The position numbers were made by a program, and so were the translations under genes. Of a DNA stretch of 64,000 nt, positions 30,640-61,745 are shown piece after piece; positions within the stretch are counted from its first letter, which is position 1, and every line of letters begins with the position of its first letter. The notes below the pieces were generated by a model that was not told the origin of the DNA, did not search any database, and was given only the letters and a program-made list of their open reading frames with translations. The DNA is taken from IMG/VR virus record IMGVR_UViG_3300028412_000003; one strand, written 5' to 3'. This stretch comes from a virus (Duplodnaviria; Caudoviricetes).

Positions 30640-30987
30640 ATGGACGAAAGACTTGAAAAGGCGTTAGAATTTTCTAACTATACTGTCACTTTAAATAATC
30701 AGATACGATTATTAAGTGAAAAATTTGCAGAAAATAATATCTACTATTACGGCGGTGGACAATTTACTGCCACCGAACAACGTATGACTTTTTGTGATAT
30801 GTTGGTTAATAGAGGACTTGAATCTGTTACGTTAATAGACGATAATGGAACACCAATTGATATAACTGATATTTCCCAGTTTCTTCAAGAAATTATGGAT
30901 CTTTATTTTTCATCAACTAACGAATTTAGAACAGAATATGATAAGCTTCGAAAGAATCGCTCAGTTAAAGGAATAACCGAACTGTGA
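30640..30987 (+). CDS. Hypothetical protein, possibly a tail fibre assembly chaperone
   Basis: 115-aa ORF with AGGAGG SD and TAAGTA element upstream. GGQF.A...LIDDN..P..I.D loosely recalls fibre chaperones; weak. Confidence 0.35.
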   Translation: MDERLEKALEFSNYTVTLNNQIRLLSEKFAENNIYYYGGGQFTATEQRMTFCDMLVNRGLESVTLIDDNGTPIDITDISQFLQEIMDLYFSSTNEFRTEYDKLRKNRSVKGITEL

Positions 30988-34171: not shown

Positions 34172-35461
34172 ATGGAATCAAAAACATTTTGCGCAATGCC
34201 TTTTATAGGTATTATGCTCAACACAGATACATTTATACGATTTTGTTGTATAGCTTCTGGTCCAGAAGCTATACTTAGAGACGAAAATGGAAAAAAGTTA
34301 GCAGTTGGAACATCTAGTATTGAGGAAGCCTGGAACAGCGAAAGCATGGTAGAAGTAAGGCGTGCAATGATAGAGGGTAAAAAGGTTACAGCTTGTAGTC
34401 ATTGTTATAAGCAAGAAGATATTGGCAAAACAAGTTTTCGTGAAATGATGACAAACGAATGGAAGCATCGTTTAGGCGAATCATTTTATGATTATGTGCA
34501 AGAAGCTGTCGAAAATGATATGAAGATTAAATTGCCTCCTGTATATTTAGATTTGCGACTAGGTAACCTTTGTAATTTAAAATGTCGTATGTGTAATCCA
34601 TTTAATAGTAGCCAAATTGCTAAAGAACATTTTCCTTTGTATGAACAAGATGAAGGATATAAATCCGTTTGGACTTCTGAATTTGGAAATAATCCAATAC
34701 ATTTAAAAGAAGAAGAAGTTGTTTTTGATAGTAATTTTTTATGGAATGAAATTATAGGAATGATACCTAAGCTTCAAAAAGTTTATATGACAGGTGGAGA
34801 ACCTACTCTTATTAAGAACAATTACAGATTTATGGAAGAGTGTGTTGCAGCAGGATATAACGATCAAATAGAATTATTCTTTAACATCAATTGCACTAAC
34901 GTAACTGATAAATTTCTTGACTTAGTTTCAAAATTTAAAAGTATAAAGATTAATTGCAGTATTGACGGTATAGGATCAGTAAATGATTATATTAGATCTC
35001 CTAGTAATTGGAACAAAGTTGATACTAATTTTAGAAAATTAGCATCCTTGTCTAATGTAAGACTTGGAATGAGTCCAGTAATTCAAGTCTATAATATCTT
35101 AGATTGTCATAACATACTTGAGTATGCTAATCAAGTATCAAAAGAATATAATAAATCTATTAGTGTTGATTTTTTGATAAATGATCATCCAACATATTTA
35201 GATGTAACTATTATACCTTTAGAAATACGAAAAAAAGGAATAGAAAACCTTTTAGCCTTTAAACAACAGAATAAAATTGAAGACCATATAACACAAAATA
35301 GTATAAATGGAATAGTAAATTTATTTGGAAGACCATTGAGAGATAATCACAAAGAGATTTATCAAAATTTTATAACTATGACAAAAGCATTAGACAAATC
35401 AAGGAAAGAAAATTTTACTAATTCTATACCAGATCTAGCAAAGGAGTTAAATTTTGAATAA
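34172..35461 (+). CDS. Radical SAM protein with N-terminal SPASM/twitch domain (#1)
   Basis: CNLKCRMC (CxxxCxxC), YMTGGEP; N-terminal CAMPF...CC...CSHC. Confidence 0.9.
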   Translation: MESKTFCAMPFIGIMLNTDTFIRFCCIASGPEAILRDENGKKLAVGTSSIEEAWNSESMVEVRRAMIEGKKVTACSHCYKQEDIGKTSFREMMTNEWKHRLGESFYDYVQEAVENDMKIKLPPVYLDLRLGNLCNLKCRMCNPFNSSQIAKEHFPLYEQDEGYKSVWTSEFGNNPIHLKEEEVVFDSNFLWNEIIGMIPKLQKVYMTGGEPTLIKNNYRFMEECVAAGYNDQIELFFNINCTNVTDKFLDLVSKFKSIKINCSIDGIGSVNDYIRSPSNWNKVDTNFRKLASLSNVRLGMSPVIQVYNILDCHNILEYANQVSKEYNKSISVDFLINDHPTYLDVTIIPLEIRKKGIENLLAFKQQNKIEDHITQNSINGIVNLFGRPLRDNHKEIYQNFITMTKALDKSRKENFTNSIPDLAKELNFE

Positions 35462-36707
35462 CTCAAAAACTTTTTGCGTTCTACCTTGGACACATATGGC
35501 AACATGGACAGATGGTAGCGCCTTACTTTGTTGTGTAGCAAAGAATAGTCATAAGTTAAATCTTAATGATAACACTGTTTCTGAAATCTGGAATAGTGAT
35601 CATTTTAAAGAAGCCCGTGTTAAGATGTTAAACGGAGAAAAAGTTTCAGCATGTGAATCTTGTTACAAGGAAGAAGCAGTTGGAATTAGAAGCCATCGTA
35701 TAAATGAAAATAATCTATGGATTAAAAAATTAGGGCAAGAAAAGATTGATAGTCTAATTGAAGCAACCGACGTTGACGGAACGTTAAATGAAGATTTAGT
35801 TACGTTAGATTTTAGATTAGGTAATACCTGTAATTTACAATGTGTGATGTGCCGTCCTCAAGATAGCAGTATGTGGTTAAACAATGCTAAAAAACTAAAG
35901 GATATACTTGAAACTGAAGCTAAATGGGATTGGCAACACAAAGCAGACATTGATACAACAAGATTTGATTGGTATAAAAATGAAAAATTATGGGCTGATT
36001 TTAACGGTATGTTTTCTAATATACGCCACATTATATTTGCCGGCGGAGAACCATTATTAATTAAAGAACATCTTCGATTAATAAAAAAATTAGTTGAATC
36101 AGGGCATAGTAAAAATATTGAATTACGTTATCACACAAATGGAACTACATTAACTGAAGAAATAATAGATCTTTGGAAAGAATTTAAGTTTGTTGAATTG
36201 ATGGTAAGTATTGATGCATGGGGAAAACATCATGATTATGTTAGATATCCGGCAGACTGGCAGCAAATAATAACTAATCTAAATAGATTAGATAATACAC
36301 CAGATAATATCGATGTTAAGATTTTAGCAACCATACATGCTATGAATATATATTATATTCCGGATTTTGCAACTGAGTTACTTAAACAGGATTTTAAGAA
36401 GATAGGAAAGTTGCATCATGAAGGGTTGTTTCACGCAGGAACCGTACACTGGCCTCGTTATCTTAATATACAAATCTTCCCACAGTGTATTAAACATAAA
36501 ATAAGAGAAAAATGGGAAAGTTATATCGAGTTAAATAAAAATTACCAATGGACTAGTAAAATTAAAAGTCAATTAGAATTTATGGATTCTGAAGATCATT
36601 CAGATTTGTTCCTTCAATATATTGATTATATTGACAAACTTGACAAAATAAGGCATACAGATTTTAGTAAAGTTTTTCCAGAATTTAAGGATATATTAGA
36701 TGGATGA
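35454..36707 (+). CDS. Radical SAM protein with N-terminal SPASM/twitch domain (#2)
   Basis: CNLQCVMC, FAGGEP; N-terminal CVLPW...CC...CESC. Confidence 0.9.
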   Translation: MNNSKTFCVLPWTHMATWTDGSALLCCVAKNSHKLNLNDNTVSEIWNSDHFKEARVKMLNGEKVSACESCYKEEAVGIRSHRINENNLWIKKLGQEKIDSLIEATDVDGTLNEDLVTLDFRLGNTCNLQCVMCRPQDSSMWLNNAKKLKDILETEAKWDWQHKADIDTTRFDWYKNEKLWADFNGMFSNIRHIIFAGGEPLLIKEHLRLIKKLVESGHSKNIELRYHTNGTTLTEEIIDLWKEFKFVELMVSIDAWGKHHDYVRYPADWQQIITNLNRLDNTPDNIDVKILATIHAMNIYYIPDFATELLKQDFKKIGKLHHEGLFHAGTVHWPRYLNIQIFPQCIKHKIREKWESYIELNKNYQWTSKIKSQLEFMDSEDHSDLFLQYIDYIDKLDKIRHTDFSKVFPEFKDILDG

Positions 36708-38067
36708 ATTAGATAAGTTAAGAAGAGATATATTAGAGAGTGAAACATTCTGTTTTTATCCGTTTCTTGAAGTAAGCACAAGACCAAATGGAGTAGTTTT
36801 TCCATGTTGTTATTGGAATGAAAATGATCATTTATCTTTAGAAAAAAGATTAGATGATAAAAATTCTCTTGATACATTCTGGAACAACAAAAAAGTAATT
36901 GATACTAGAAATAAAATATCAAACGGAACTAAAGTTAAGGGTTGTAAAATATGTTATAGAGATGGTGCATCTAGCATGAGGGCTAGAAGTATAAAGGAGC
37001 ATATAAATGATAGAGATAAATTACAGATAGTAAAAGATACTTTAAACAATGAAGGTGTAGCAAAACATTCACCAAAAAAGATAGAACTTAAACCAAGCAA
37101 TCTTTGTAATTTGAAATGTCTAATTTGCAATGCTTATGATTCTTCTCAGATTGAAAAAGAGTTGTCAGACTTAGATGAAAAGTTTAATGGAATTAAAACA
37201 ATAGGTGGAACATTCTCAAGAATAGTAGGAAATCAGTCTGGTGTGTGGGAAGGTAATGTAGGACAATATGTTTTGAATGCTAATTCTAAATCTAAATGGG
37301 CAGAGTCAGATCGATTCTGGGAAGAATTAAAGATATTGCTACCAAAGATAGAAGTTTTAAGTTTTGCAGGAGGCGAACCAACTCTTAATCCTATAGTCAA
37401 TAAAATACTAACCTATTGTGTTGAAACAAAAATATCTAAAAATATCACCGTTTTTATCAGTAGTAATTTTACCAATCTTAATCCTAAATTTCTTTCAAAT
37501 ATGAATAACTTTAAAAAGTTTGAATTAATTGCTAGTATAGATGGTACAGAAAAGGTACAAGAATATACACGGTTTCCTTCTAATTGGAATAAAATAAAAG
37601 AAAACTTTGAAGAAGCTAAGACCTATATGCAAGGCACGGAAATTAAGATATTAACGAATATAACGGTAAGCATAATGAATATATTTCAATTACATGATTT
37701 GTTTTGGTATATTGATGAACAAAGTAGTAAACATCCTTATTACAACGAATGGCCATTTAATATTAATTTAATTAATTTTCCGGAACAGCAACGCATATCG
37801 ATTATACCTCCGGAATTTAGACAAGAGATAATTGATAATCTTAATCATTATCTTGAAAATGGAGATATCATTAAATTCTTTCCTGATTTAAAGATTAAAA
37901 TTGAAATGTTAATACATGAATTAAATAATGAATGGGACAAAGAAGATTCCGTTTTCCAATTAACTAAATTAAAAACTATGTTGGTTACTTTAGATGAGCA
38001 TAGAAAAGTGTCCTATAAGGATGCAATACCAAAACTAGATGAAATATTTAAGGAATACGTAAAATGA
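36700..38067 (+). CDS. Radical SAM protein with N-terminal SPASM/twitch domain (#3)
   Basis: CNLKCLIC, FAGGEP; N-terminal CFYPF...PCC...CKIC. Confidence 0.9.
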   Translation: MDELDKLRRDILESETFCFYPFLEVSTRPNGVVFPCCYWNENDHLSLEKRLDDKNSLDTFWNNKKVIDTRNKISNGTKVKGCKICYRDGASSMRARSIKEHINDRDKLQIVKDTLNNEGVAKHSPKKIELKPSNLCNLKCLICNAYDSSQIEKELSDLDEKFNGIKTIGGTFSRIVGNQSGVWEGNVGQYVLNANSKSKWAESDRFWEELKILLPKIEVLSFAGGEPTLNPIVNKILTYCVETKISKNITVFISSNFTNLNPKFLSNMNNFKKFELIASIDGTEKVQEYTRFPSNWNKIKENFEEAKTYMQGTEIKILTNITVSIMNIFQLHDLFWYIDEQSSKHPYYNEWPFNINLINFPEQQRISIIPPEFRQEIIDNLNHYLENGDIIKFFPDLKIKIEMLIHELNNEWDKEDSVFQLTKLKTMLVTLDEHRKVSYKDAIPKLDEIFKEYVK

Positions 38068-39047
38068 AAAAACCAGTAACATTAAGTGGAATTGAATATA
38101 CAAAGATTGAGAATAGATCAAATAGTTTGTATCTTACATGGGTGATGAATAATATCTGTACTAATAGTTGTTCTTATTGTCCTGAAGATTTACACACTGG
38201 AAAAAATCATCATTATGAATGGAATCATGCTAAAAAGTTTCTGAAAGATTGCTTCGATCGTTATGGTAAAGTGCAATGTAGCATCTCCGGCGGCGAACCA
38301 ACAGTTAGTCCTTTTTTTAAAGAAATAGTAGATCTTATATACGACAATGGTGGATTGGTAGTATTAACTACCAATTTTGCAAGGTCTGTTTCGTGGTGGA
38401 AAGATGTGGCCCCAAAGATCAGTAGTTTATCATGTAGCTATCATCCAGAGTTTATGCCCACAAAAGAATTTGACGACAGTCTAATTGAGAAAATAACAGA
38501 AGCAGCGAAGGTAACTTGTGTTACGGTTCGAGTGATGATGCATCCAGATTATTGGGATCAATGTATGAATTTTTTTAAACGTATACAAGATTCCGGTATA
38601 GAATGTTCTGCAGAAATTGTCCGTATATTGGACAATTTTGGAATAGGAGAGGCTTTTTGTGTTATTAATTACACCGAAGAACAAGAACGCATCTTACGTG
38701 AAGTAAAACCCTACATAAATTGGCCAAATAACCTTCCGGATACATATCGACATAATGTACTGAATTCTTATTTGATTTCAGAAACTAACGAAATAATGTT
38801 AGATTTCCCGATAGCGTCGGAAATATCTAATACTATGAATAATGACTTTAATGGTTGGAATTGTAAAATTGGACTGGAAAGTCTATTTGTGCATTATGAT
38901 GGAAATGTGCAAAGGGGCAACTGTGGAGTAGGAGGTCATCTTGGCAATATTACCACCAAAATAAACTGGCCGACTGAAAGTATTATCTGTAATAAAACAG
39001 TTTGTCATTGTTTAGCAGACGTATTGATGTCAAAGGAGATAACATGA
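38064..39047 (+). CDS. Radical SAM protein with C-terminal Cys-rich (SPASM/twitch) domain (#4)
   Basis: CTNSCSYC, ISGGEP; C-terminal WNCKIG...GNC...ICNKTVCHC. Confidence 0.9.
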   Translation: MKKPVTLSGIEYTKIENRSNSLYLTWVMNNICTNSCSYCPEDLHTGKNHHYEWNHAKKFLKDCFDRYGKVQCSISGGEPTVSPFFKEIVDLIYDNGGLVVLTTNFARSVSWWKDVAPKISSLSCSYHPEFMPTKEFDDSLIEKITEAAKVTCVTVRVMMHPDYWDQCMNFFKRIQDSGIECSAEIVRILDNFGIGEAFCVINYTEEQERILREVKPYINWPNNLPDTYRHNVLNSYLISETNEIMLDFPIASEISNTMNNDFNGWNCKIGLESLFVHYDGNVQRGNCGVGGHLGNITTKINWPTESIICNKTVCHCLADVLMSKEIT

Positions 39048-39805: not shown

Positions 39806-40578
39806 TGAAAATAAAATCATCTTTTTCTAATATAAAATTAAATGATTTAAAAGATCTAACAACACCGGGTCTAAAAAATACTAGACCTGTATTTCTAGGA
39901 AGGTGGGAAGAACATGCAACTACTATTGATAAAAAATGGACTTATTATATAAATGAAATAGGATTTAGAAATTCTTGGCCGGAAAAAATGAAAGATCATA
40001 TTGTTGGAATATATGGATGTAGTAATATCTTTGGTGTTGGAGTTCCAGACGACCTTGTTTGTACTTCTCTATTACAAGAGAAATTTCCCGAAAAAACATT
40101 ATTAAACTTTGGAGTAATGGGCGCTTCTGTCTCGCATATAGCTAGGATATTTCTTATATCTAGTCAACTATTTAAAATTAAAACGGCATTTTTTAGTCTT
40201 CCTAGTATATATAGGATTCTAATGGTAAATGAAGCTGGATATTATAATCTACATCCGGGAACTAATTCCTTAAACAAAGATGGATTAGAAAAAAGAAGAA
40301 AACAATACTATCAATCGATAAACGAAGAAACCTTATTAATGAATTATTTAGACATAGTGGATCATATTATATTAATTGGAAAAGAATTTGGAATTAGGAT
40401 ATATTTTAGTTCATACGAAGAAATAGTACACAAAATATTAATAGAAAATTATAATGACAGTTATATAACAAAACCGATGTATAATAGTAGAAAGGCTACA
40501 GATAATAATCATCCTTGTTATCTTTGTCATAAGGATTATGCAACGATAATTGAAAAGAAATTATTAACTAATGTATGA
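39802..40578 (+). CDS. SGNH/GDSL-like hydrolase or acyltransferase (copy 2)
   Basis: Start refined from 39757 to ATG 39802 (ATGA overlap). YGCSNIFG, NFGVMGAS, DNNHP (block V DxxH). Confidence 0.55.
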   Translation: MMKIKSSFSNIKLNDLKDLTTPGLKNTRPVFLGRWEEHATTIDKKWTYYINEIGFRNSWPEKMKDHIVGIYGCSNIFGVGVPDDLVCTSLLQEKFPEKTLLNFGVMGASVSHIARIFLISSQLFKIKTAFFSLPSIYRILMVNEAGYYNLHPGTNSLNKDGLEKRRKQYYQSINEETLLMNYLDIVDHIILIGKEFGIRIYFSSYEEIVHKILIENYNDSYITKPMYNSRKATDNNHPCYLCHKDYATIIEKKLLTNV

Positions 40579-41596
40579 TATTGTATTCTTTGGAGAAAGA
40601 AATAATAATTGGGATATTCTTAAAGAAAGATTTCCAACGGCAAAAAATATAACTAATTTAGAAAATATCAACAAGATAACATTCACTAAAATGTATTGGT
40701 TAGTTTATGATGATCTAATTATAAACGAAGACTTTAATTTTGATTATAAAATAGAAGAATGGGATCAAAAATATGTTCATTCTTTTCTCAATAATGGAAA
40801 TTATAATGGAATATCTTTAATACCTAAAACGAAAAATATATCAAAACGAGAAGCAGAATATAGGTTTTTCGTAGACAAGAAAGAAATTCCAATTGAAGCA
40901 TCAACTCCAAATCCATATGATGTAGTTTTTATATCATACAATGAACCTAATGCTGATAAGAATTATAAGAAATTACTTGAGATCGTTCCTTGCGCAAAAA
41001 GAGTAAACGGGATAAACGGGATACACCAAGCTCATATAGAAGCAGCAAAAATATCAGATACTAAAATGTTATGGATTGTTGATGCTGATGCTATAGTTGT
41101 AAATGAATTTAATTTCTCTTATTTGCCATCCGTTTGGGAACAAGACGCCGTTCATGTCTGGAGGTCAAAAAATCCTATTAATGGATTATCTTACGGATAT
41201 GGTGGAATAAAACTTTTTCCGAGAGATCTTACTTTGTCACTTGATATTAACACACCAGATATGACTACTAGCATAAGTGATAGATTTAGAATACACGAAG
41301 ATATTTCTAATCTAACAGAATTTAATACTGATCCTTTTAACACTTGGAAATCAGCTTTTCGTGAATGTGTAAAATTGTCATCTCGAACAATAACAAGACA
41401 AAATGAAAAAGAAACACAAGACCGTTTACAAATCTGGATGACGGTTGGTGCTGATATGCAATATGGTATATATTGTATAGACGGAGCTCGTAGTGGAAAC
41501 GAGTACGGAATAAAAAACAAGGATGATAAAAAGGCCCTTGCAATGATTAACAATTTTGATTGGTTAAAAGAAAAATTTGATGAGCAATGTAATTAA
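40571..41596 (+). CDS. GT-A-fold glycosyltransferase-like protein (family B, copy 2) with degenerate N-terminal repeat
   Basis: YDVVFISYNEPNADKNY, WIVDADA (DxD), YGYGGIKLFP, TWKSAFRECVK; paralog of 33247. The first ~115 aa repeat the start of the domain (YDIVFF...TKMYWLVYDD...WDQKYVH). Confidence 0.6.
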   Translation: MYDIVFFGERNNNWDILKERFPTAKNITNLENINKITFTKMYWLVYDDLIINEDFNFDYKIEEWDQKYVHSFLNNGNYNGISLIPKTKNISKREAEYRFFVDKKEIPIEASTPNPYDVVFISYNEPNADKNYKKLLEIVPCAKRVNGINGIHQAHIEAAKISDTKMLWIVDADAIVVNEFNFSYLPSVWEQDAVHVWRSKNPINGLSYGYGGIKLFPRDLTLSLDINTPDMTTSISDRFRIHEDISNLTEFNTDPFNTWKSAFRECVKLSSRTITRQNEKETQDRLQIWMTVGADMQYGIYCIDGARSGNEYGIKNKDDKKALAMINNFDWLKEKFDEQCN

Positions 41597-42257
41597 GATA
41601 TTAAATGGATTAGAAGAAATTTATCAAGACAATTTTATAATTCACCTAAAACGAACATTAGAAAAGAATCCAGAGGTAGAAGATGCAATGTCTGATGCAC
41701 TTAGCATTGGACAAATAAAAAGTAAAGAATGGTTGATTGATCATTTACCAAAAGAACTTGGAAAAGTTTTTATTTGTGCAGGTTGGTACGGAACTCTTGC
41801 AGCAATGATGTTCCGAGCTAACCTTAATATAACAGAGATAAGGACGTTTGATGTTGACCCAAGTTGTGCTGTCATAGCAGAAAATATGAATAGAACAGAA
41901 GTGCAACAAGAATGGAAGTTTAAAGCCAGTACATTAGACATATTAGATATGACATATCCAACAAAATATGTTACTTATAGGGCAAACGGAACTTCGGTAC
42001 TACTTGAAGAAATGCCAGACACTATTATCAATACTAGTTGTGAACATATTAAATATTTTCAAGAATGGTATGATCATATACCAACAGGAACAACATTAGT
42101 TCTTCAAAGTAACAATTACTTTGAACACAATCAACATATAAATTGTGTTCCTTGTTTAAAGGAATTTAAAAAGAGGGCACCTATGTCGGAGATATTTTAC
42201 GCAGGAGAATTATTTCTTCCAAAATATACTAGGTTTATGTTAATAGGAAAAAAGTAA
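41580..42257 (+). CDS. Class I SAM-dependent methyltransferase
   Basis: ICAGWYG (motif I-like), FDVDP (acidic motif II), DTIINTSCEH. Confidence 0.7.
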   Translation: MSNVIKILNGLEEIYQDNFIIHLKRTLEKNPEVEDAMSDALSIGQIKSKEWLIDHLPKELGKVFICAGWYGTLAAMMFRANLNITEIRTFDVDPSCAVIAENMNRTEVQQEWKFKASTLDILDMTYPTKYVTYRANGTSVLLEEMPDTIINTSCEHIKYFQEWYDHIPTGTTLVLQSNNYFEHNQHINCVPCLKEFKKRAPMSEIFYAGELFLPKYTRFMLIGKK

Positions 42258-43321
42258 TGTATCAAATACAAGACATACGAACTATTCATCTTGAAGTGAC
42301 ACAAAAATGCCAAGCAGCTTGTCCAATGTGTGATAGAAATATGCGCGGTGAAGGAATAAATCCTCACATTAATTTAGACGAACTAACACTTGAAGATTGT
42401 AAAAAGATATTTTTACCCGAATTTATTAAACAACTCAATACTATGTATATGTGTGGCAACTTAGGAGATCCAATCATAGCAAAGGATACCCTTGCAATAT
42501 TTTCGTATTTTCGAGATCATAATCCTACCATGTGGCTTAGTATGAATACAAACGGAGGCGCAAGAGATGTTCGGTGGTGGCAAGAGCTTGCTGACACAAT
42601 AGGTAAAAATGGTGCAGTTATATTTTCAGTCGATGGACTAAGAGACACTAACCATTTATATCGTCAGGGTGTAAATTGGGATTTAGTACAACGAAATATG
42701 AATGCTTATATAAATCATGGTGGCCGAGCAAGGTGGGATTTTTTAGTTTTTGAATATAATCAACATCAAGTAGAAGAAGCAAGACAGCTCTCGTTACGGT
42801 GGGGAGTAGAAAGGTTTATTGCAAAAAAGACTGCCCGATTTGTTAAATCAAATTCGGAAGCTAAAGAAGAACACCAAGCTAAAGATCACAAAGGTAATGA
42901 TACCACAAATATTAAGAAACCAGAACCTCAATACCAAAATGAAGAATTAAAGAAACAAGCATTGCTAATTGAACAATATGGATCAATGGATGCGTATTAT
43001 GAGCAGGTCCCTATAAAATGTAAGGTAAAAGACGAAGGAAGTTTGTTTATAACAGCCGAGGGATTAGTTATGCCATGTTGTTGGACTGCAGGTCGAATGT
43101 ACAAATGGTGGCATAAAGATCCTAAAGTAGAACAAATTTGGGCATTTATTGAGATGTCCGGAGGAAAAGAAGCATTAGATGCACGACAAGGGTTAGATAA
43201 AGTATTTCAAACTGGAATATTTGATCGAATTGAAAATGCTTGGAATAAGAATGATCGATTAAAAGTTTGTGCTATGAAATGTGGGATCGCCTTTGATCCC
43301 TTTACTGCTCAATTTCAATAA
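42257..43321 (+). CDS. Radical SAM protein with C-terminal SPASM/twitch domain (#5)
   Basis: CQAACPMC; CGNLGDP replaces GGEP; C-terminal KC...PCC...CAMKC. Confidence 0.9.
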   Translation: MYQIQDIRTIHLEVTQKCQAACPMCDRNMRGEGINPHINLDELTLEDCKKIFLPEFIKQLNTMYMCGNLGDPIIAKDTLAIFSYFRDHNPTMWLSMNTNGGARDVRWWQELADTIGKNGAVIFSVDGLRDTNHLYRQGVNWDLVQRNMNAYINHGGRARWDFLVFEYNQHQVEEARQLSLRWGVERFIAKKTARFVKSNSEAKEEHQAKDHKGNDTTNIKKPEPQYQNEELKKQALLIEQYGSMDAYYEQVPIKCKVKDEGSLFITAEGLVMPCCWTAGRMYKWWHKDPKVEQIWAFIEMSGGKEALDARQGLDKVFQTGIFDRIENAWNKNDRLKVCAMKCGIAFDPFTAQFQ

Positions 43322-43332
43322 GTATTAATATG
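43318..43332 (+). promoter_or_regulatory. Internal late-promoter-like element ATAAGTATTAATATG
   Basis: Exact 15-nt match to 4560-4574; sits in the largest (8-nt) gap of the enzyme cluster. Confidence 0.5.
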
Positions 43333-44718: not shown

Positions 44719-45686
44719 CAGAATTAGTTCGAATTGAGCATATTGATAAGAAATATAAAGAATGGGTTCGTGTAGAATGGAATCTTGGTAAAAGATGTAA
44801 CTTTGATTGTAGTTATTGCCCACCTGATCTACATGACAATTCAAGCGGTCACGCAGATCTAAAAAGCTTTGACAATACTATTCAAAAAATAAGAGAATCA
44901 TATATTGATAAAAAAGTAAGAATGAGTATAACAGGTGGAGAACCATTTGTGCATCCTCGCATTCTTGAAATACTTTCTTTGTTTTCAAAATATAATATAG
45001 ATGAAGTTTCTACTATTACTAATGGTAGTTTACCATTAGTAAAATATGAAGCCTCTTTTGAACATCTTGATCATTTAATTTTTAGTTGGCATTATGAACA
45101 TTTAAAAGAAGAACATATGAGGAATGTTTTATATGGATTAAAGGATCGACCAATACATGTACATCTTATGTTTTTACCTGGACGTTTAGAAGAGATTAAA
45201 AATACGGTTAGTTGGTTAGAAGATAACGGAATTAGATATAACATAAGAAGGATCAGACCTTTATTTACACCAGTTGGTGGATTTAATCTTCCTGGCTCAA
45301 GTGGAATGGAAGGAATACATTCAAAACAATCACCTGATGGTTATTATTCTCAAGAAGAGTTAGAATATTTAGATACCTTTTCAAAAGCAGGTACAAGTCA
45401 AGATAATGCTGAATTTTTTACAACAGAATCTAGTTGGTTTGATAATGTAAACACGTTATTAAAGAATAGGCAAAATTCTTTTGTAGGATGGAAATGCATG
45501 GCAGGAATTGAAACATTGTATATAGAGAATGATGGAAATATTTTTAGGGCAACTTGCAAACAAGGTGGTCCGATTGGAAACATAAGTGAAGATTTTAAAA
45601 TTCCAAATAATCCAATTATTTGTGCTAAACAATGGTGTAATTGTGCAGCTGATCTAAACACAACAAAATGGAATAAAAATGGCTAG
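44715..45686 (+). CDS. Radical SAM protein with C-terminal Cys-rich domain (#7)
   Basis: CNFDCSYC, ITGGEP; C-terminal WKCMAG...ATC...ICAKQWCNC; paralog of 38064 and 50494. Confidence 0.9.
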   Translation: MTELVRIEHIDKKYKEWVRVEWNLGKRCNFDCSYCPPDLHDNSSGHADLKSFDNTIQKIRESYIDKKVRMSITGGEPFVHPRILEILSLFSKYNIDEVSTITNGSLPLVKYEASFEHLDHLIFSWHYEHLKEEHMRNVLYGLKDRPIHVHLMFLPGRLEEIKNTVSWLEDNGIRYNIRRIRPLFTPVGGFNLPGSSGMEGIHSKQSPDGYYSQEELEYLDTFSKAGTSQDNAEFFTTESSWFDNVNTLLKNRQNSFVGWKCMAGIETLYIENDGNIFRATCKQGGPIGNISEDFKIPNNPIICAKQWCNCAADLNTTKWNKNG

Positions 45687-46761
45687 TTTTTGCAAAGCAA
45701 TCGATCATCATGTGTCAATTAATAGTCAAGGGTTAGTTCGTCCTTGTTGTTGGTTTAAGGGCGGAACAAATAGCGACATAAGTGAAGCAAGATCTAATTT
45801 TAAAAAAGAAATTAAAAGTATTGATCATCCAGGTTGTATCAAATGTAAAAATTCTGAATTAATCGGAGTAAAAAGTCGGCGCATTTTTTATGAAGAAAGT
45901 TGGCCTGCTTCTTCGGGATTGAATTATTTAGATATAAGTTTCGCTAACACTTGCAATCTTGAATGTTTGATGTGTAATTCAAGTAATTCAAGTAAATTGT
46001 ATAAAAGAGATATAGAACTAAAGGGCAATGATTTTCCTGTTTCGGCACACAAACATGCTACGATGGATTTTAATCGCATCAAAGAATTAGCAGAAATATG
46101 TAATAGCTCAATTGGAGAATTTTTAATTGATGTAAAAGGAGGAGAACCAATGGTAACTCCAGAATTTGTATTATTTTTGTCTATGCTTGATATAGAATTT
46201 AAAAAAAGATGCACGTTAAAGATTATTACAAATGGAACTAGGATAATGAAAGAACTTCCTTCAAATTTTAAAAAGGTAAAATATCTTTTTAGCATAGAAG
46301 CATTAGGGCAATTATATCAATATATAAGAGGTGGTAAAGAATTTACATCAGATCAAATGTTTGATATTATAGAAATGATAAAAACTGAAAATATTAAAAA
46401 CTTTCAAGATGCTTCATATAATTTTAGCATAACCGTTATGTCCTACAATCTTTTTAATCTTGTAGAATTAGATAATGAGATTGCAGATAGAGGATTTTGG
46501 CCTCCTACTTATAACACCATATTAGTAAATCCAGATTTTTTAAGTTTTGGGATTTTACCACAACAGTTATCAAATATGATGATAGAAAAATTAAAAGAAG
46601 AAGATGTAAAATTCAAACCAGTTATTACTGCATTAAAGAACATGGAAAAACTTGACAATAATAAAGTTGAGATGTTTATTAGATATACTCGTATGATGGA
46701 AAAAAGAAATAAAATGCCACCAATTGAAGAAATAGTGCCAGAGTTTAGGACTATGTTATGA
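45679..46761 (+). CDS. Radical SAM protein with N-terminal SPASM/twitch domain (#8)
   Basis: CNLECLMC, VKGGEP; N-terminal FCKA...PCC...CIKC. Confidence 0.9.
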   Translation: MASFCKAIDHHVSINSQGLVRPCCWFKGGTNSDISEARSNFKKEIKSIDHPGCIKCKNSELIGVKSRRIFYEESWPASSGLNYLDISFANTCNLECLMCNSSNSSKLYKRDIELKGNDFPVSAHKHATMDFNRIKELAEICNSSIGEFLIDVKGGEPMVTPEFVLFLSMLDIEFKKRCTLKIITNGTRIMKELPSNFKKVKYLFSIEALGQLYQYIRGGKEFTSDQMFDIIEMIKTENIKNFQDASYNFSITVMSYNLFNLVELDNEIADRGFWPPTYNTILVNPDFLSFGILPQQLSNMMIEKLKEEDVKFKPVITALKNMEKLDNNKVEMFIRYTRMMEKRNKMPPIEEIVPEFRTML

Positions 46762-47936
46762 GTAATTTTTGTTCCCTGCCATTTACACATTTTAGCACAC
46801 GTCCGAATGGCGACGTTCTTCCTTGTTGTAGATATCCTGGAAAATTAGGAAATATAAAAGATAATTCATTAGAAGAAATATGGAACGGAGAACAGATGAA
46901 AGAACTCCGAAAGCAATTTCTTGCAAATGAAAGACCAGAAAAATGCTGGCCTTGTTGGCAACTTGAGGACTCAGGCGGAACAAGTATGAGACAAACTATG
47001 AATCAAAATCGAAATTATGAGTTTGAACTTTTACCGGAACAACCATTTAAGATTCCAGTCATTGAACTTAAACTTAGTAACCTTTGTAATTTTCGTTGTC
47101 GTACATGTAAACCTGATTTGAGTACTACATGGCTCAAAGATTGGCATACTGTCTCTAATATGTACTATGACAGCAATATCTCTATAAACACTGAAAAAGC
47201 TAATTTTTTCGATACAGAAGAGTTCCTCTACAACATGTTGCGCCTTGCACCTACCATAGAGATACTAGAGTTTGCGGGTGGGGAACCTTTAATGGATCCA
47301 TTGCATTATATGGTTCTTAATGCACTAAAGAGCGAAGCAAGTCATATAGAAATTAAATATTCTACTAACCTAAGCAGATTGCAGATAGGTAAATGGGACG
47401 TGTTTGATTATTGGAAAGATTATAAAAGTGTTGATGTATCTTTGTCAATGGATGGATATCCGGATCTCAATGATTACATACGATCAGAATCAAATACAAA
47501 GTCAATAGAAGAAAACTTAAAATTAGTAAGAAAAGAATTAGGTGATAAATTTAAAGGAAGGATTGCATTATGTTTTTCGGCATTTAATGCTTATTACCTA
47601 CCCGAGAGTTATTCTTATTTTGTTAGAGAATTAGATATGCCAGTTCATGGAAACATAGCATACGATCCACCGTTTATTAATCCTCAATTATTACCAATTG
47701 ACATTAAACAAAAAATTATCACTAGATACAATGTATTTAGAGAAACAATAAATGATATGAGTAAGTATCATCAAAAAAGGATTGATCGATTCTTAACAAC
47801 TAATGGAAATTATATGATGAGTGAAGACAAGTCTCATTTGTTAGATCAATTCTTAAAATATACTTCAATATTAGATAAGTCAAGAAATACTAATTTTTTG
47901 ACAATAGCAAAGGAATTTTTAAATGACATGGGATAA
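46758..47936 (+). CDS. Radical SAM protein with N-terminal SPASM/twitch domain (#9)
   Basis: CNFRCRTC, FAGGEP; N-terminal CSLPF...PCC...CWPC. Confidence 0.9.
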   Translation: MSNFCSLPFTHFSTRPNGDVLPCCRYPGKLGNIKDNSLEEIWNGEQMKELRKQFLANERPEKCWPCWQLEDSGGTSMRQTMNQNRNYEFELLPEQPFKIPVIELKLSNLCNFRCRTCKPDLSTTWLKDWHTVSNMYYDSNISINTEKANFFDTEEFLYNMLRLAPTIEILEFAGGEPLMDPLHYMVLNALKSEASHIEIKYSTNLSRLQIGKWDVFDYWKDYKSVDVSLSMDGYPDLNDYIRSESNTKSIEENLKLVRKELGDKFKGRIALCFSAFNAYYLPESYSYFVRELDMPVHGNIAYDPPFINPQLLPIDIKQKIITRYNVFRETINDMSKYHQKRIDRFLTTNGNYMMSEDKSHLLDQFLKYTSILDKSRNTNFLTIAKEFLNDMG

Positions 47937-49194
47937 ATCAAAAGCAGAACAAACATATTGTCCATTACCTTGGTTGCATTTAGCAACTAATGCAACTGGT
48001 AGATTGCGAGTATGTTGCAATAGCTTTACCGGAAACAACAAATTATTACATGATAATGGATCTTTCGTAAAAGCAACAGACATTAAACAAGTAAGTGACT
48101 TGGATAAAAACAAGACATTAATGGAATTAAGAAGACAAATGTTAAATGGTGAAAGACCAGACACTTGCAGAAGATGTTTCCATGAAGAAGATAATGGAAT
48201 TATTAGTTCTAGAATGGTTTATAATGAACAATTTGGAGAAATTGATGTTGCTCTCAAAGAGACTAAGTCTACCGGTGAAGCTCCGCATAAATTTCAATAT
48301 CTTGATCTAAGGTTAGGCAACTTGTGCAATTTAAGATGCCGGATGTGTAATCCTTATACCAGTAGCCAATTAGTTGACGAATCTGCAGAACTTGGAATAA
48401 TTTCTGCAGAAGATGTAGCATTTCTTAAGAATATGGATTGGCCAGAGTCTACTAAATTATGGGATTTATTAGAAAGTAATCTATCTACAATAGATCTAAT
48501 ATACCTAACAGGTGGAGAACCAACATTAATATTGGAACAACTCCGTCTTCTTAAAGCTTGTATAGATAGAGGTTATGCAAAGAATATCACTTTGAAATAT
48601 AATACCAATGTTACAAATATTCCAAAGAAATTCCTTGATTATTGGAAAGAATTTAAGAAGGTAAAAATTAATTGTTCAGTTGACGGATTAGATGATGTAT
48701 GTCGTTATATAAGAAATCCAAGTAACTGGAAAGCGATTGATAAAAATTTAAAGATGATTGATCAAATTGCAGGTACACATTCTAATATAGATGTTGAAAT
48801 ACACACAACGGTACAAGTTGCAAATATAACAAGGTTGATTGAAATATTTGATTATTTTTCAAAATTTAAGAATATCACTAATTTTCCTTTTTTAAACTTG
48901 CTTACTAATCCACCTTATTACAATATAAAGATTTTACCACAACACATTAAGGATGAAGTGTCTAATGAGTTATTAACTTGGTACGAAGAAAACAAAAGCA
49001 AATATGAAGGAACACATGCATCTTCTCCAAACAAGATACATAAAATACCAGGTCTAATAAGTTATATGAAAATGGATGATTGGTCTCACCATGCTAAAGA
49101 ATTTAAGAAATACACAGTATGGTTTGATAAAAGTAGAGATGAAGAGTTTGTTTCAGTTGCTCCTCGATTAAAGGATTGGTATGAATCAATATAA
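47923..49194 (+). CDS. Radical SAM protein with N-terminal SPASM/twitch domain (#10)
   Basis: CNLRCRMC, YLTGGEP; N-terminal CPLPW...CC...CRRC; close to 34172 around the core. Confidence 0.9.
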   Translation: MTWDKSKAEQTYCPLPWLHLATNATGRLRVCCNSFTGNNKLLHDNGSFVKATDIKQVSDLDKNKTLMELRRQMLNGERPDTCRRCFHEEDNGIISSRMVYNEQFGEIDVALKETKSTGEAPHKFQYLDLRLGNLCNLRCRMCNPYTSSQLVDESAELGIISAEDVAFLKNMDWPESTKLWDLLESNLSTIDLIYLTGGEPTLILEQLRLLKACIDRGYAKNITLKYNTNVTNIPKKFLDYWKEFKKVKINCSVDGLDDVCRYIRNPSNWKAIDKNLKMIDQIAGTHSNIDVEIHTTVQVANITRLIEIFDYFSKFKNITNFPFLNLLTNPPYYNIKILPQHIKDEVSNELLTWYEENKSKYEGTHASSPNKIHKIPGLISYMKMDDWSHHAKEFKKYTVWFDKSRDEEFVSVAPRLKDWYESI

Positions 49195-49375
49195 GAAACT
49201 TTGTTCTCAGCCATTTTTAAATTTAACAATAGACAAGACGGGTAAACTAAGTCCTTGTTGTCGAATTCCCTCTTTTTTGAATAGCAACATTAATGAATTT
49301 AGAGAACAAGAAAAAGAAAAGAACATAAAATTTTTAGATTATTGTCCTGAATTTAAGGAATGGTTTGATGTCTAA
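49181..49375 (+). pseudogene. 64-aa internally deleted radical SAM remnant (SPASM N-terminus fused to family C-terminus)
   Basis: LCSQPF.NL.I...G...PCCR matches the family N-terminus; KFLDYCPEFKEWF matches the C-terminus of 49368-50504 (INDYCPEFKEWF). No CxxxCxxC. It may still be translated. Confidence 0.65.
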
Positions 49376-50504
49376 GTATAATTCAAATACCCTTTGTCCT
49401 TTTCCTTTTTCTGGTTTCTGTATAGAACCATCAGGAGTAGCAAAAATGTGTTGCCGGTCAATGCCTTTAACTGATGATAATGGAAAGTTTATCAATATAA
49501 AGGATTATTCTTTTGAAGAAATAAAAAATTTAAAACAAATAAAAGAAGTTCAAGAGTCTATGTTAAAAGGAGAAAAACCCCAAGCATGTCAAAAATGTTG
49601 GAATCAGGAAGCAAAAGGGGTAAAATCTCTCAGGAACTTTATAAGAGGAAGGTCCTGGCATGGAGATTATATATACGATAAAAAAGAATTAATTTATTTA
49701 GATTTAAGACTGAGTAATAAATGTAACCTCAAATGTATTATGTGTTCTCCTGATTCAAGTGATCAAATTGGGATTGAACAAGGAATAGAAAGTGCTTATC
49801 AATCAGCAGAGGTTGCCGAAGAGGTTATTAAACATAGCCCTTATTTAAAAGAAATTTATTTTGCCGGCGGCGAACCTATGCTAGATAACGATCATTTTAA
49901 GATAATAGAACATCTAGTGAAAACTGGAGAAGCAAAGAACGTTGAATTAAAATATAGTACCAATTGTACGACAATAAGAGATAAGTGGTTTGACTTAGCC
50001 AAACACTTTAAGACGATAAAGATGCAACTTAGTATTGATTCAATCGGTTCTAGAGCATTCTATGTTCGGCATCCTAGCAAATGGGATATAATAGAAAAAA
50101 ACATTGATAGGTTGTTGTTAGAAAAACCCAAAAACACTAGACTTTCGATAGATACTGCATTGCATAATATGACGTTATTTGGAATACCAGAATTAATGTT
50201 ATGGGCGGAAAATAAAGGAATAAAACAGAACTTTATAGAAGTAACTTCTCCTAGATATCTACAGATACATATATTACCTAATATTCAAAAAGAAATAATA
50301 ATAGAGCAATTACATAATTCAAATAAAACAAAAAATTTAGTTGATAATAAATGGTTATCTCGTATAGAAGAGATGATAAAGAAAGACCCAACAGTGGAAG
50401 AGGTTCGGCAGTTTAAAGAATATATAAAATATACTGAGAATTTTCGTAATATAAAGATTAATGATTATTGTCCGGAATTTAAGGAATGGTTTAATGAGTT
50501 ATGA
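49368..50504 (+). CDS. Radical SAM protein with N-terminal SPASM/twitch domain (#11)
   Basis: CNLKCIMC, FAGGEP; N-terminal CPFPF...CC...CQKC. Confidence 0.9.
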   Translation: MSKYNSNTLCPFPFSGFCIEPSGVAKMCCRSMPLTDDNGKFINIKDYSFEEIKNLKQIKEVQESMLKGEKPQACQKCWNQEAKGVKSLRNFIRGRSWHGDYIYDKKELIYLDLRLSNKCNLKCIMCSPDSSDQIGIEQGIESAYQSAEVAEEVIKHSPYLKEIYFAGGEPMLDNDHFKIIEHLVKTGEAKNVELKYSTNCTTIRDKWFDLAKHFKTIKMQLSIDSIGSRAFYVRHPSKWDIIEKNIDRLLLEKPKNTRLSIDTALHNMTLFGIPELMLWAENKGIKQNFIEVTSPRYLQIHILPNIQKEIIIEQLHNSNKTKNLVDNKWLSRIEEMIKKDPTVEEVRQFKEYIKYTENFRNIKINDYCPEFKEWFNEL

Positions 50505-51570
50505 TTTTACAAAGATCCCGTTTGAAGATATAGTACGGCTTGGGCAACGCACTATGATACACCGTGACCTTTTTACAGTGAGTTGGTTACTTGGTCGTTT
50601 TTGTAATTATCGTTGTTCATATTGTTGGCCGTATGCCAGGAGTGATCGAAAAGATCACCGTCCTACAGAACTCTGTTTAACAACAATAGATGAGATTAAA
50701 CGACAAGCTAGAAACAATGGATTTAATTCTTTTCATTTTAGTTTTAGTGGAGGTGAACCAACCTTTCATCCGGGTTATTTAGATATATTAAAATACCTAG
50801 CAGATGATGTTTCTAATACAAACGGAACAACAATTCATATGACATCAAATTGTTCTCGTAATATGAAATGGTTTGAGGAATATACAGAAACAGCAAAGTC
50901 TTTTCAGCGTGCTAGTATCACAGCAAGTTTACACACCGAACATGTTAATACTCCGGAAAAGATGCAAGACTTTGCAGACAAATTGATATTTGCTCAAGAA
51001 CAAGATATACAAGTAACTATCAATATGGTAATGGTACCAGAATGGTTTGAACAATCATGGGAAAACGCATTATTCTTTCACAATCAAAATATCAATGTTA
51101 CACTTAAACCACAAAGCGATCCGACCGCATCTCGTATAGTAGATGGATATACAGATGACATGCTTGATAAACTTCATAACGGAATGCCTCAAGAAAATTT
51201 TACAACAATAAAGAGTAAATTTTACAATCGTCCTAAACAGAAAATCTCTATCCCTCAAGACGTTCCTTCTAATATGCAAGTAGAAATGGAAGATTCTAAT
51301 GGAAAGAAATGGTATATAGATCAAGCAGAAAGATTTAATGCTTTTAATTTTAACAAATTTGAAGGCTGGAGTTGTAATGCAGGATATCAGGGTATCATAA
51401 TAAGAGAACCGGATGGTAGTGTTAAGCGTTCATATTCATGTAAAGATCAACCATTAGGTAATATCAAAACAGGATTTAAAATATTTGATACACCTATGCC
51501 GTGTATTACACCGACTTGTGTTTCAAGTGCAGATAGCAAAATACCAAAGAAGAAGAAGAAGAAGATATGA
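50494..51570 (+). CDS. Radical SAM protein with C-terminal Cys-rich domain (#12)
   Basis: Start refined from 50461 to ATG 50494. CNYRCSYC, FSGGEP; C-terminal WSCNAG...SC...CITPTCVS. Confidence 0.9.
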   Translation: MSYDFTKIPFEDIVRLGQRTMIHRDLFTVSWLLGRFCNYRCSYCWPYARSDRKDHRPTELCLTTIDEIKRQARNNGFNSFHFSFSGGEPTFHPGYLDILKYLADDVSNTNGTTIHMTSNCSRNMKWFEEYTETAKSFQRASITASLHTEHVNTPEKMQDFADKLIFAQEQDIQVTINMVMVPEWFEQSWENALFFHNQNINVTLKPQSDPTASRIVDGYTDDMLDKLHNGMPQENFTTIKSKFYNRPKQKISIPQDVPSNMQVEMEDSNGKKWYIDQAERFNAFNFNKFEGWSCNAGYQGIIIREPDGSVKRSYSCKDQPLGNIKTGFKIFDTPMPCITPTCVSSADSKIPKKKKKKI

Positions 51571-52427: not shown

Positions 52428-53136
52428 CACAAAAATTAAGTTATTAGCTATACTGAATCACCTACTCTTTATAGGAGGAGTAGTATATTCATTTTCATGG
52501 ACAGGATTATTATATGGATTTATCATTTACTTGTTAATAGTCACGATTGGAACAAGCATTGGCTATCATAGGTATTACACTCACAAATCATTTAATACCA
52601 ATAAGACATGGGAATTAATTTTCCTTTTCTTCGGAAGCATAGCTTTTTTAGGTCCAGTTATAGCTTGGTCTGGAATACATCGTATACATCATGCTAAGTC
52701 TGATACAAATGAAGATCCACACAGTCCTTTGAATGGGTTTTTTAACACCTGGTTCCATATATTTCCTAATAAGAACATATCACCGAAGTACATAGCAGAT
52801 CTTATAAAAGATCCATGGCTAAAGTTCCAACACAAATGGTATTTTTGCATGGTCACGATTTATTTGGTGTTAGGATATCTAGCAATCGGACATTGGGCAG
52901 TTTATATAATCTCAATGCCAGCTGTGTTGATGTATCATGTAACTGGATTTATCAATAGCGTTAACCATATGATAGGAGAACAAAAATCAAAACATGATCG
53001 ATCAACTAATATTCCTATCTTATCTTTAGTTACTGGAGGAGAATCTTATCATTCTAATCATCATGTGCGTCCAGGAAGTTCGGTTTTTGGTAAGTACGAT
53101 ATAGCTAAGATTTTTTTACCGTGGATTATAAAATGA
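52417..53136 (+). CDS. Membrane-bound fatty acid desaturase (delta-9-like His-box family, copy 1)
   Basis: GYHRYYTH, IHRIHH, DPHSP and YHSNHH His boxes; hydrophobic transmembrane segments. Confidence 0.85.
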   Translation: MTADTKIKLLAILNHLLFIGGVVYSFSWTGLLYGFIIYLLIVTIGTSIGYHRYYTHKSFNTNKTWELIFLFFGSIAFLGPVIAWSGIHRIHHAKSDTNEDPHSPLNGFFNTWFHIFPNKNISPKYIADLIKDPWLKFQHKWYFCMVTIYLVLGYLAIGHWAVYIISMPAVLMYHVTGFINSVNHMIGEQKSKHDRSTNIPILSLVTGGESYHSNHHVRPGSSVFGKYDIAKIFLPWIIK

Positions 53137-54020
53137 ATTATTATGAACTTGAACCAGAAGAAAATACATTTAAAACACTTGTAGTGGACATTACTCATAA
53201 GTGTAATATGGAATGTGCCAATTGTTATATTCCAAATAGAGATATTCCAGATATGGATCTAGATCGTCTTTATGATCTAGCGAAGAGGCTACCTCGGCGC
53301 ACAGAGTTTCGATTGATGGGAGGAGAACCGACTATGCACAAAGATCTACCAGACATAATTTCTACTCTCCGCACGCTAGGTCACAGGCCTACAATACTTA
53401 CTAACGGACTCAGGCTAGGCAATTTAGACTACTGTAAGACGCTTAAAAACGCGGGCTTGCACAGTTTAAACATAAGTCTCAACGGCGCTGATGACGACAA
53501 CATCTATGTTATAACAGATGAACTTAAATGTGCAGAACGTAAAATGAAAGCATTAAGGAATGTCGTTTCTTTAAATATGTTCATCAATATCAATTGTATC
53601 ATACAAAAAGGCGTAAGTGAACCCGTGCCTGGACGGTTAATTGATATATTCCAAAATGAGTTAAACTATCCCGGTGTATTACGATTCCGCAATGTTGGAC
53701 AGATTGGCCGGTTTTCTTTAGGAAAAGAAGACAATTATACCTTTGATGAATTGATAGAGTTCATGGGTAAAGTTACTGGAAAAGATCCTGATTGGATACG
53801 TCAATGGAAACAAGTTGAAGGTTACGACGAAGAACACAACGTACTCTTTCCATTAGATGAAACAAAGAAGAGATCGACCCAGTGGATTAAAATTACGGAT
53901 TGGAGCCCTTCTTTATCTGATATTCCTGATCCAAATAGTATTAGGAGAGGAAGGATCACTCAAGATTTTAAGCTGGCACCTTTCTTTGAGCACGTTAAGG
54001 AAAACGAATTTGGATACTAA
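53133..54020 (+). CDS. Radical SAM protein, MoaA-like core without N-terminal SPASM (#13)
   Basis: Start refined from 53121 to ATG 53133. CNMECANC, LMGGEPT, LTNG.RL, LNISL.G. Confidence 0.85.
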   Translation: MNYYELEPEENTFKTLVVDITHKCNMECANCYIPNRDIPDMDLDRLYDLAKRLPRRTEFRLMGGEPTMHKDLPDIISTLRTLGHRPTILTNGLRLGNLDYCKTLKNAGLHSLNISLNGADDDNIYVITDELKCAERKMKALRNVVSLNMFININCIIQKGVSEPVPGRLIDIFQNELNYPGVLRFRNVGQIGRFSLGKEDNYTFDELIEFMGKVTGKDPDWIRQWKQVEGYDEEHNVLFPLDETKKRSTQWIKITDWSPSLSDIPDPNSIRRGRITQDFKLAPFFEHVKENEFGY

Positions 54021-61649: not shown

Positions 61650-61677
61650 AGAACACTCCTCTGTTACTTTATATTTA

Positions 61678-61706: not shown

Positions 61707-61709
61707 GAG

Positions 61710-61742: not shown

Positions 61743-61745
61743 AGT

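Follow-up and report, generated by a model that had tools for sequence, protein, structure and literature searches.

The 64,000-nucleotide stretch of DNA analyzed here (the window; IMG/VR record IMGVR_UViG_3300028412_000003, Duplodnaviria, Caudoviricetes) derives from a large (jumbo) myovirus of freshwater and carries, between positions 34172 and 54020, 13 genes for radical S-adenosylmethionine (SAM) enzymes, numbered R01 to R13 in their order below. The proteins of the window are also on record within a 228,322-bp contig, lake-water metagenomes hold DNA nearly identical to it, and the GC content of the phage is 34%. All 13 open reading frames (ORFs) named in a preliminary description of the sequence are present on the plus strand, and the CxxxCxxC motif reported for them is intact and occurs exactly once in each. 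Three of the starts given there (49368, 50494, and 53133) are internal ATG codons of ORFs that can begin at 49365 (TTG), 50461 (ATG), and 53121 (GTG). The Pfam Radical_SAM profile matches 13 of 13 products, 12 of them above its gathering score, and the one that falls below it (the ORF at 43330; 25.6 versus 29.5 bits) nevertheless reaches 417.7 bits on the NCBIfam model NF033640. The density of radical SAM genes in the window is far above chance; among 82 viral loci that carry a gene of the R02 type, the commonest count of radical SAM genes within ≤21 kb is 3 and the highest is 8.

Instead of the three architectures first proposed, we find four families. The largest comprises the eight ORFs in which an auxiliary domain precedes the radical SAM core (here called N-twitch enzymes), namely R01 (34172..35461), R02 (35454..36707), R03 (36700..38067), R06 (43330..44718), R08 (45679..46761), R09 (46758..47936), R10 (47923..49194), and R11 (49365..50504). 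This domain order, first described as permuted, is already curated as NF033640 (N_Twi_rSAM, twitch domain-containing radical SAM protein), a model that aligns all eight ORFs end to end, starting at profile position 1-3. With membership defined by a full-length hidden Markov model (HMM) score of ≥170 bits, seven copies belong to the family at 283-418 bits (R01, 360 bits over 3-424; R02, 401; R03, 283; R06, 418; R09, 341; R10, 375; R11, 312). The short and divergent R08 lies under the cut-off at 150.3 bits, aligned over profile positions 3-396; it retains all eight invariant cysteines and sits on a long branch in the tree described below.

The eight ORFs do carry N-terminal cysteines before the core, as the preliminary description held, in the form of five residues spaced C-x17-CC-x28..63-CxxC; the accompanying motif is in fact C-x-x-P-[WF], and R08 is without it. 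In the alignment of the eight, C8, C26, C27, C67, C70, C126, C130, C133, and G197-G198-E199 are invariant (in R01 the cysteines stand at 7, 25/26, 75, and 78, followed by C134xxxC138xxC141), and across 101 homologues three of these positions (C26, C67, C70) never vary, with C8 and C27 conserved at ≥90%. None of the 13 copies in the window has lost a cluster ligand or the GGE motif. A SPASM domain binds two auxiliary clusters through a seven-cysteine motif; with five cysteines and no CX2CX5CX3C block, the N-terminal domains would therefore hold one auxiliary cluster at most, so that of the original "SPASM/twitch" label the twitch part stands and full SPASM does not. Six of the eight N-terminal regions match the Pfam SPASM profile, five of them above its cut-off (in R09 with 58 bits at residues 5-67).

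An AlphaFold2 model of R02, computed with the 101 homologues as input (pLDDT, 96.9), consists of a beta-hairpin with helices (residues 10-75), linker helices, a core beginning at residue 114, and a helical domain at the C-terminus. Against solved structures the core alone aligns (residues 114-384), with anSME and BlsE at Z 12.7 and further matches to CteB, viperin, SkfB, MoaA, DesII, and SuiB, while the AlphaFold DB holds many cellular clusters with the whole fold (TM, 0.75-0.87), some of them named "Twitch domain-containing radical SAM protein." Sequence searches of R02 and R05 against the PDB with phmmer returned no useful relative. Identification as anaerobic sulfatase maturases (TIGR03942) was rejected at 19.6-22.9 bits against a cut-off of 349. 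Literature searches on N-terminal twitch/SPASM domains and on radical SAM enzymes in O-antigen or polysaccharide biosynthesis found no paper describing the NF033640 family, and no characterized member was found in the searchable literature.

C-terminal cysteine groups had been reported for four further ORFs (38064, 42257, 44715, and, with its corrected start, 50461); they are present, divided between two unrelated families rather than forming one. Three of these ORFs, R04 (38064..39047; Pfam Radical_SAM, 34.6 bits; C-terminal cysteines 267, 287, 309, 314, and 316), R07 (44715..45686; 47.6 bits; cysteines 261, 281, 303, 308, and 310), and R12 (50461..51570; 53.4 bits), share a C-x19-21-C-x20-21-C-x4-C group and 23-26% mutual identity (R04 versus R07, 26%; R04 versus R12, 23%), and their sequences mark them as a family of their own, c1. 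Viperin and STM4011 were tried as identities for these C1-type proteins and rejected (27-47 bits against a cut-off of 180 and 34-50 bits against 200, respectively). R12 is 58% identical to a c1 protein of the cellular locus L067, and a related phage locus (L001:8944-11028) encodes a 694-aa protein in which a C1-type radical SAM enzyme forms the C-terminal half and the partner has no Pfam match. The fourth ORF, R05 (42257..43321), stands alone, with an N-terminal core and a C-terminal C255-x18-CC-x62-CxxxC group. Its best NCBIfam match is to the core region of NF033640 (50 bits), and its C-terminus (residues 262-300) weakly matches an HMM built from the N-twitch N-terminal domains (E = 0.02), which is suggestive of an unpermuted twitch cousin of the N-twitch enzymes. 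R13 (53121..54020) also stands alone. Its description as MoaA-like holds for the core (Pfam, 67 bits), and it has no auxiliary cysteine cluster, the only cysteines outside the core being C105, C137, and C159. Its best solved relative is the tetraether synthase GDGT-MAS (PDB 7TOL; E = 3e-16); MoaA itself (TIGR02666) was rejected at 74.9 bits against a cut-off of 284, the C-terminal auxiliary cysteine cluster being absent.

The first 12 genes are arranged as three cassettes in which N-twitch genes or R05 are closed by a C1-type gene: R01-R03 with R04, R05-R06 with R07, and R08-R11 with R12. R04 and the N-twitch gene before it overlap at the stop codon of the latter. The same upstream arrangement is found in cellular genomes, where 13 of 25 C1 genes directly follow an N-twitch gene of the same orientation (base rate, 18%), as do three of three in the window. 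Partner genes recur in the 82 viral loci as well, with U6 in 57, U3/U4 in 51, a C1-type gene in 50, and U10 in 32. U6 (33247..34170), directly upstream of R01, is a GT-A-fold transferase-like protein (AlphaFold2 pLDDT, 88) with at least 8,000 close metagenomic homologues and an invariant D65-x-D67, and it has no Pfam or PHROG match. All of its fold matches in Foldseek and VIA are GT-A or nucleotidyl-transferase proteins, the best in Foldseek being PBCV-1 A64R (E = 1.6e-4), with SunS/ThuS, TarP, and RmlT among the others, and B4GALNT1, a Leptospira glycosyltransferase, and STIV A197 matching in VIA at Z 9.4-10. Versions of U6 of ~536 aa (P0123-type proteins) are abundant in relatives, their extra part having no Pfam match.

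U9 (40571..41596) is a paralogue of U6 at 31% identity, with homologues adjoining N-twitch genes in four Bdellovibrionota loci (L033, L041, L043, and L067); a U9-like part also occurs within an 817-aa protein of a related phage (L005:4133-6586), next to a partner domain without a Pfam match. U10 (41577..42257) has the fold of a class I SAM-dependent methyltransferase (Atlas structure search, TM 0.66-0.78 to Methyltransf_11/31 clusters), and its homologues (c27) adjoin N-twitch genes in five cellular loci. The conserved paralogous pair U3 and U4 (30984..32653) has no Pfam or PHROG match; a weak Mannosyl_trans3 lead from the Atlas search makes GT-A proteins a possible identification of the pair, as a lead only. 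Searches of PHROGs and relaxed Pfam searches with ten uncharacterized ORFs of the window returned nothing. In the cultured Ralstonia jumbo phage RsoM2USA, U2-U6 and a single N-twitch gene lie downstream of the giant ORF361 and other structural genes, and ORF361 is listed as a virion protein (PMC8504454).

The bacterial context was examined by clustering the neighbors of N-twitch genes across 78 cellular loci. The scan that yielded these loci was seeded with an alignment of the R02 subfamily, as that of the eight paralogues was too divergent, and the loci are biased toward the R02 subfamily accordingly. A C1-type radical SAM gene is present in 22 of the 78, a GT2 glycosyltransferase lies directly upstream of an N-twitch pair in 13, and carbamoyltransferase, B12-binding radical SAM, and asparagine synthase genes occur in 15, 10, and 6, respectively. 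A pair of ABC_tran (393 aa) and ABC2_membrane genes, found in six to eight loci of Bdellovibrionota, WWE3, Bacteroidota, and Actinomycetes, is probably of the Wzt/Wzm type, as judged by the Pfam families and sizes of the two proteins. U6/U9 and U10 have homologues that recur among these cellular neighbors too. By its annotated protein families, the cellular N-twitch neighborhood has the gene content of a polysaccharide locus.

The idea that the copies arose by paralog expansion within a virus was not borne out. In a tree of 95 proteins the eight N-twitch copies take eight separate placements, which rules out a recent expansion in the phage, and cellular genomes hold as many as 15-16 copies. 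In each of the clades of R01, R02, R03, R06, and R10, phage orthologues stand together with Bdellovibrionota proteins; R06 is sister to a protein of phage locus L008 and one from a Pseudobdellovibrionaceae genome, and the R10 clade additionally takes in proteins of WWE3 and Alphaproteobacteria. Related uncultured phages keep both the genes and their order (U1-U6, R01, R02, R03, R04, and so on), with identities of 46-64% for R01 (loci L001, L002, L004, L005, and L008), 52-72% for R02, 40-46% for R03 (L005 and L008), 71% for R05 (L008), and 61% for R06; R02 has >120 homologues at ≥50% identity. The copies are thus polyphyletic, a result named beforehand as speaking against an expansion if it came with functionally characterized bacterial orthologues, and no such characterized orthologues were found. 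Relaxed selection, the other reservation raised at the outset, is rejected: dN/dS of the window copies against their orthologues is 0.10-0.41, values that are rough because dS is saturated and that nevertheless clearly reflect purifying selection.

In a search of one genome per prokaryote species, the closest cellular homologues (≤50% identity) come overwhelmingly from metagenome-assembled genomes of Bdellovibrionota, Mb-scale contigs included; others belong to Microthrixaceae/Acidimicrobiales and Bacteroidales. The actinobacterial homologues are found inside proteins of 900-1456 aa (L088, on an Aquihabitans sp. chromosome, and L062/L063, from Microthrixaceae/Acidimicrobiales), and a Pfam search of the fusion partners in long homologues (up to 1456 aa) detected no extra domain. 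One 1.9-Mb Bdellovibrionales genome (G004, the source of locus L035) holds 16 full-length NF033640 members, placed in two large arrays and a single gene (C1:792-803 kb, 1068-1092 kb, and 1532 kb), and another holds 15, while 14 model genomes yielded no member scoring above the cut-off. The GC content of G004 is low (32% in the locus read), and it is speculative that low-GC Bdellovibrionales of this kind are the host of the 34%-GC phage. Taken together, the phylogeny and gene neighborhoods point to radical SAM cassettes that are ancient and that the phage shares with Bdellovibrionota polysaccharide loci. Among other phages, KVP40-like vibriophages have three to four N-twitch genes each, with generic annotation only, and a 183-kb T4-like marine viral genome carries 12 radical SAM genes along with Fe-S assembly genes (Nishimura et al. 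2017; PMC5332604).

Gene turnover in the block is ongoing, as seen in a 64-aa ORF (49181..49375) in which the N-terminal ~30 residues of an N-twitch enzyme, up to and including the PCC motif, run on into its C-terminal ~13 (DYCPEFKEWF), and which is the deletion remnant of a ninth N-twitch paralogue. A 71-nt repeat is found at 49322/50448. The copies that remain are intact, diverged (21-32% identity among the eight N-twitch paralogues), and individually conserved, and for these reasons they probably differ from one another in the position or substrate on which they act, as had been suggested from the outset.

The block belongs to a run of ~30 genes at 29.7-57.6 kb, all on the plus strand and mostly with overlapping stop and start codons, which follows the fiber genes and shares its orientation with the baseplate and fiber genes. 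The structural genes of the window encode a VgrG-like spike, a CHAP lysin, gp25, a 1151-aa baseplate wedge protein with 35-37% identity to counterparts in PA5oct- and Rak2-like jumbo phages, and fiber proteins with Collar and Peptidase_G2 domains. Between the baseplate and fiber genes lies an ORF of 5035 aa (8534-23641, plus strand) with weak FG-GAP and CBM_5_12 matches; its counterparts measure 4135 aa in phage locus L004 and 2541 aa in RsoM2USA (ORF361), and it is a candidate acceptor of modifications. The 15-mer ATAAGTATTAATATG occurs exactly at 4560-4574 and at 43318-43332, both copies ending in a start codon (of gp25 and R06, respectively), and may be a late leader shared by these two genes. 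Promoter and terminator scans stayed at chance level, searches of RNA runs with the window sequence gave no match, and the 20-kb block had no megablast match among 50,697 phage records.

The 3' part of the block differs in content. Two FA_desaturase-family genes (52417-53136 and 53857-54645; Pfam PF00487, 61.8 and 37.9 bits) lie around R13, followed by two Asp/Asn beta-hydroxylase (LpxO-like) genes (54626..56169; PF05118, 45.9 and 46.8 bits). These two genes are diverged except for a 295-nt direct repeat of 98% identity (54983-55277 and 55762-56056), which indicates recent gene conversion over the catalytic core of the pair. Desaturase-like genes accompany 4 of the 82 viral loci with an R02-type gene and AspH-like genes 7, and the target of this sub-block may be lipid or protein. 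Beyond the end of the island, and convergent with it, the minus strand (57630-58853) encodes a 407-aa protein with a match of 39 bits to Mtd_N, the N-terminal domain of the major tropism determinant; this protein may serve in receptor binding or be acted on by a diversity-generating retroelement. Also on the minus strand (60396-62840), a gene for a MoxR-type AAA+ ATPase adjoins one for a DUF2201 metallopeptidase/VWA protein.

The reading that we favor, with a probability of roughly 0.45, is that the block is a late-expressed island for the assembly and tailoring of a glycan (glycoconjugate), attached to the tail-fiber module of a jumbo myovirus. Sugar chemistry and protein cross-linking had both been suggested for these enzymes, and gene context gives the former the better support, because GT-A-like and methyltransferase genes accompany the N-twitch genes in phages and their neighbors in bacteria are of the polysaccharide type. 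According to this proposal, the GT-A-fold proteins (U6, U9, and perhaps U3/U4) would build or attach a sugar chain, U10 would methylate it, and each radical SAM enzyme would carry out a distinct radical C-H functionalization on a sugar or sugar-linked substrate, with each of the old subfamilies responsible for a different step. In the N-twitch enzymes, the core cluster (CxxxCxxC with GGE) would cleave SAM to yield the 5'-deoxyadenosyl radical, and the single auxiliary [4Fe-4S] cluster predicted in the N-terminal twitch domain could accept an electron or position the substrate, as in BtrN and anSME. The likeliest target in the phage would be its own fiber or virion proteins, a link suggested by the position of the block after the fiber genes, their common orientation, and the exact 15-nt sequence before both R06 and gp25. 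The data bear directly on gene content and co-occurrence, on families, folds, and phylogeny, and on purifying selection; a sugar as the substrate, the chemistry performed on it, late expression, and a target on the virion are all inferred. A broader and more doubtful version holds that the N-twitch and C1 cassettes are an uncharacterized radical carbohydrate-tailoring system of Bdellovibrionota and of widespread aquatic jumbo phages, and that the three late cassettes of the window produce a hypermodified fiber glycan.

Several observations weigh against glycan tailoring and lend weight to other explanations. Late expression is read from a single common 15-mer. The GT-A assignment of U6 comes from fold comparison (TM, 0.22-0.35; Z, ~10), in which nucleotidyl-transferases fit too, and an hhalign comparison of the U6 family with a bona fide GT2 profile was not significant (4% probability). 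The window has no sugar-nucleotide synthesis gene and no glycan exporter. Some of the Bdellovibrionota contigs are possibly misbinned phage, L067 carrying phage-like genes. Moreover, most of the SPASM/twitch relatives whose function is known mature peptides, and CteB, SkfB, and anSME are among the best fold matches of the R02 core. These last two points, with the SuiB match and weak NCBIfam matches to PapB, YhhB, and DynA, would also be expected if the enzymes were protein or peptide maturases, introducing cross-links, epimerizations, and oxidations, along with AspH hydroxylation, on the giant fiber, on virion proteins, or on an unrecognized precursor peptide. The Asp/Asn beta-hydroxylase genes nearby and the proximity of the block to the fiber genes and the 5035-aa ORF agree with such a role. 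The maturase models are nonetheless far from matched (PapB, YhhB, DynA, SkfB, and similar models score 17-52 bits against cut-offs of 300-450, with PapB at 52 versus 340), and no PqqD/RRE (RiPP recognition element) domain was found by Pfam in any of the 13. The block has no free small ORF either, its genes overlapping and its sole short ORF being the gene remnant, and the recurrent cellular neighbors are of the polysaccharide type, not peptides or proteases. We consider protein maturation rather unlikely, and the least unlikely of the alternatives.

The AspH-like and desaturase-like genes of the 3' part, which would fit protein or lipid targets too and count against a sugar target, raise the further possibility that host membrane lipids or lipid A are remodeled during infection by desaturation, hydroxylation, and radical C-C/C-H chemistry. 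GDGT-MAS as the best solved relative of R13, and weak matches of several copies to the Tes model, point the same way. Those genes are, however, restricted to 51.5-57.6 kb, so that a lipid target would account for the 3' sub-block only; across the 82 viral loci the N-twitch genes keep company with GT-A-like and methyltransferase genes rather than with the few desaturase-like and AspH-like ones, and Tes and HpnH scores are far under their cut-offs. Lipid remodeling as the role of the whole block thus appears improbable. Scarcely more credible is the synthesis of a soluble small molecule (a modified nucleotide, a nucleoside diphosphate sugar, or an antibiotic-like compound) for host takeover or anti-defense, unrelated to the virion. 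Weak likeness to viperin, QueE, MoaA, and BlsE, which act on nucleotides or nucleosides, and the AMP-binding, carbamoyltransferase, and APS-kinase-like genes of relatives could be taken that way, but the scores to those four families are far under the cut-offs, and the place and orientation of the block in the structural module, together with its conserved linkage to fiber genes in many phages, fit a structural role better. Finally, the gene remnant and the AspH gene conversion could be signs of decaying or redundant duplicates without separate functions. Against this stand the retained cluster ligands and GGE motif of all 13, orthologues that are 40-72% identical, and paralogues at 21-32% identity in separate old clades; the tree placements and the dN/dS values effectively refute decay.

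Glycan tailoring of the fibers, if confirmed, would give the first case of virion glycosylation that depends on radical SAM enzymes, and new sugar chemistry could be drawn from it. If virion sugars are indeed tailored in this way, radical chemistry would be added to the biology of phage surface glycosylation and host recognition, while proteins as the targets would mean a new class resembling ribosomally synthesized and post-translationally modified peptides (RiPPs) without an RRE domain. In either case NF033640, which has thousands of metagenomic members and is massively expanded in aquatic jumbo phages and Bdellovibrio-like bacteria, gains a testable context in the form of a GT-A-like transferase, a methyltransferase, and polysaccharide loci. 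ORF349/350 of the cultured Ralstonia phage RsoM2USA offer a tractable minimal system.

We know of no virion glycosylation system that includes radical SAM enzymes. As with A64R of PBCV-1 and the glycosylated virions of actinophages, the window encodes a GT-A-fold protein, U6, beside structural genes; it differs in that the fold match of U6 is weak (TM, 0.22-0.30). BtrN, anSME, and BlsE share with the N-twitch enzymes the radical SAM core and a single auxiliary-cluster domain built of a beta-hairpin and helix; the spacing of the auxiliary cysteines in BtrN resembles the C-x17/18-C...CxxC of the window, and both BtrN and BlsE act on sugar-like substrates. Their auxiliary cluster is C-terminal, however, whereas the auxiliary domain in the window precedes the core, and the scores of the N-twitch enzymes to every named family are far below the cut-offs. 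The cellular NF033640 genes resemble those of Wzm/Wzt polysaccharide loci in adjoining GT2, ABC-2 permease and ATPase, carbamoyltransferase, asparagine synthase, and B12 radical SAM genes, while the phage block has no exporter. The marine viral genome TARA_ERS488813_N000010 (PMC5332604) is likewise a large phage genome with a dozen radical SAM genes in a context of Fe-S demand; that paper gives neither the families of these genes nor their arrangement or function. A further comparison is with NF033640 itself, whose order of twitch, core, and helical C-terminal domain is that of the window's eight proteins, the difference here being that eight members stand within one phage locus.

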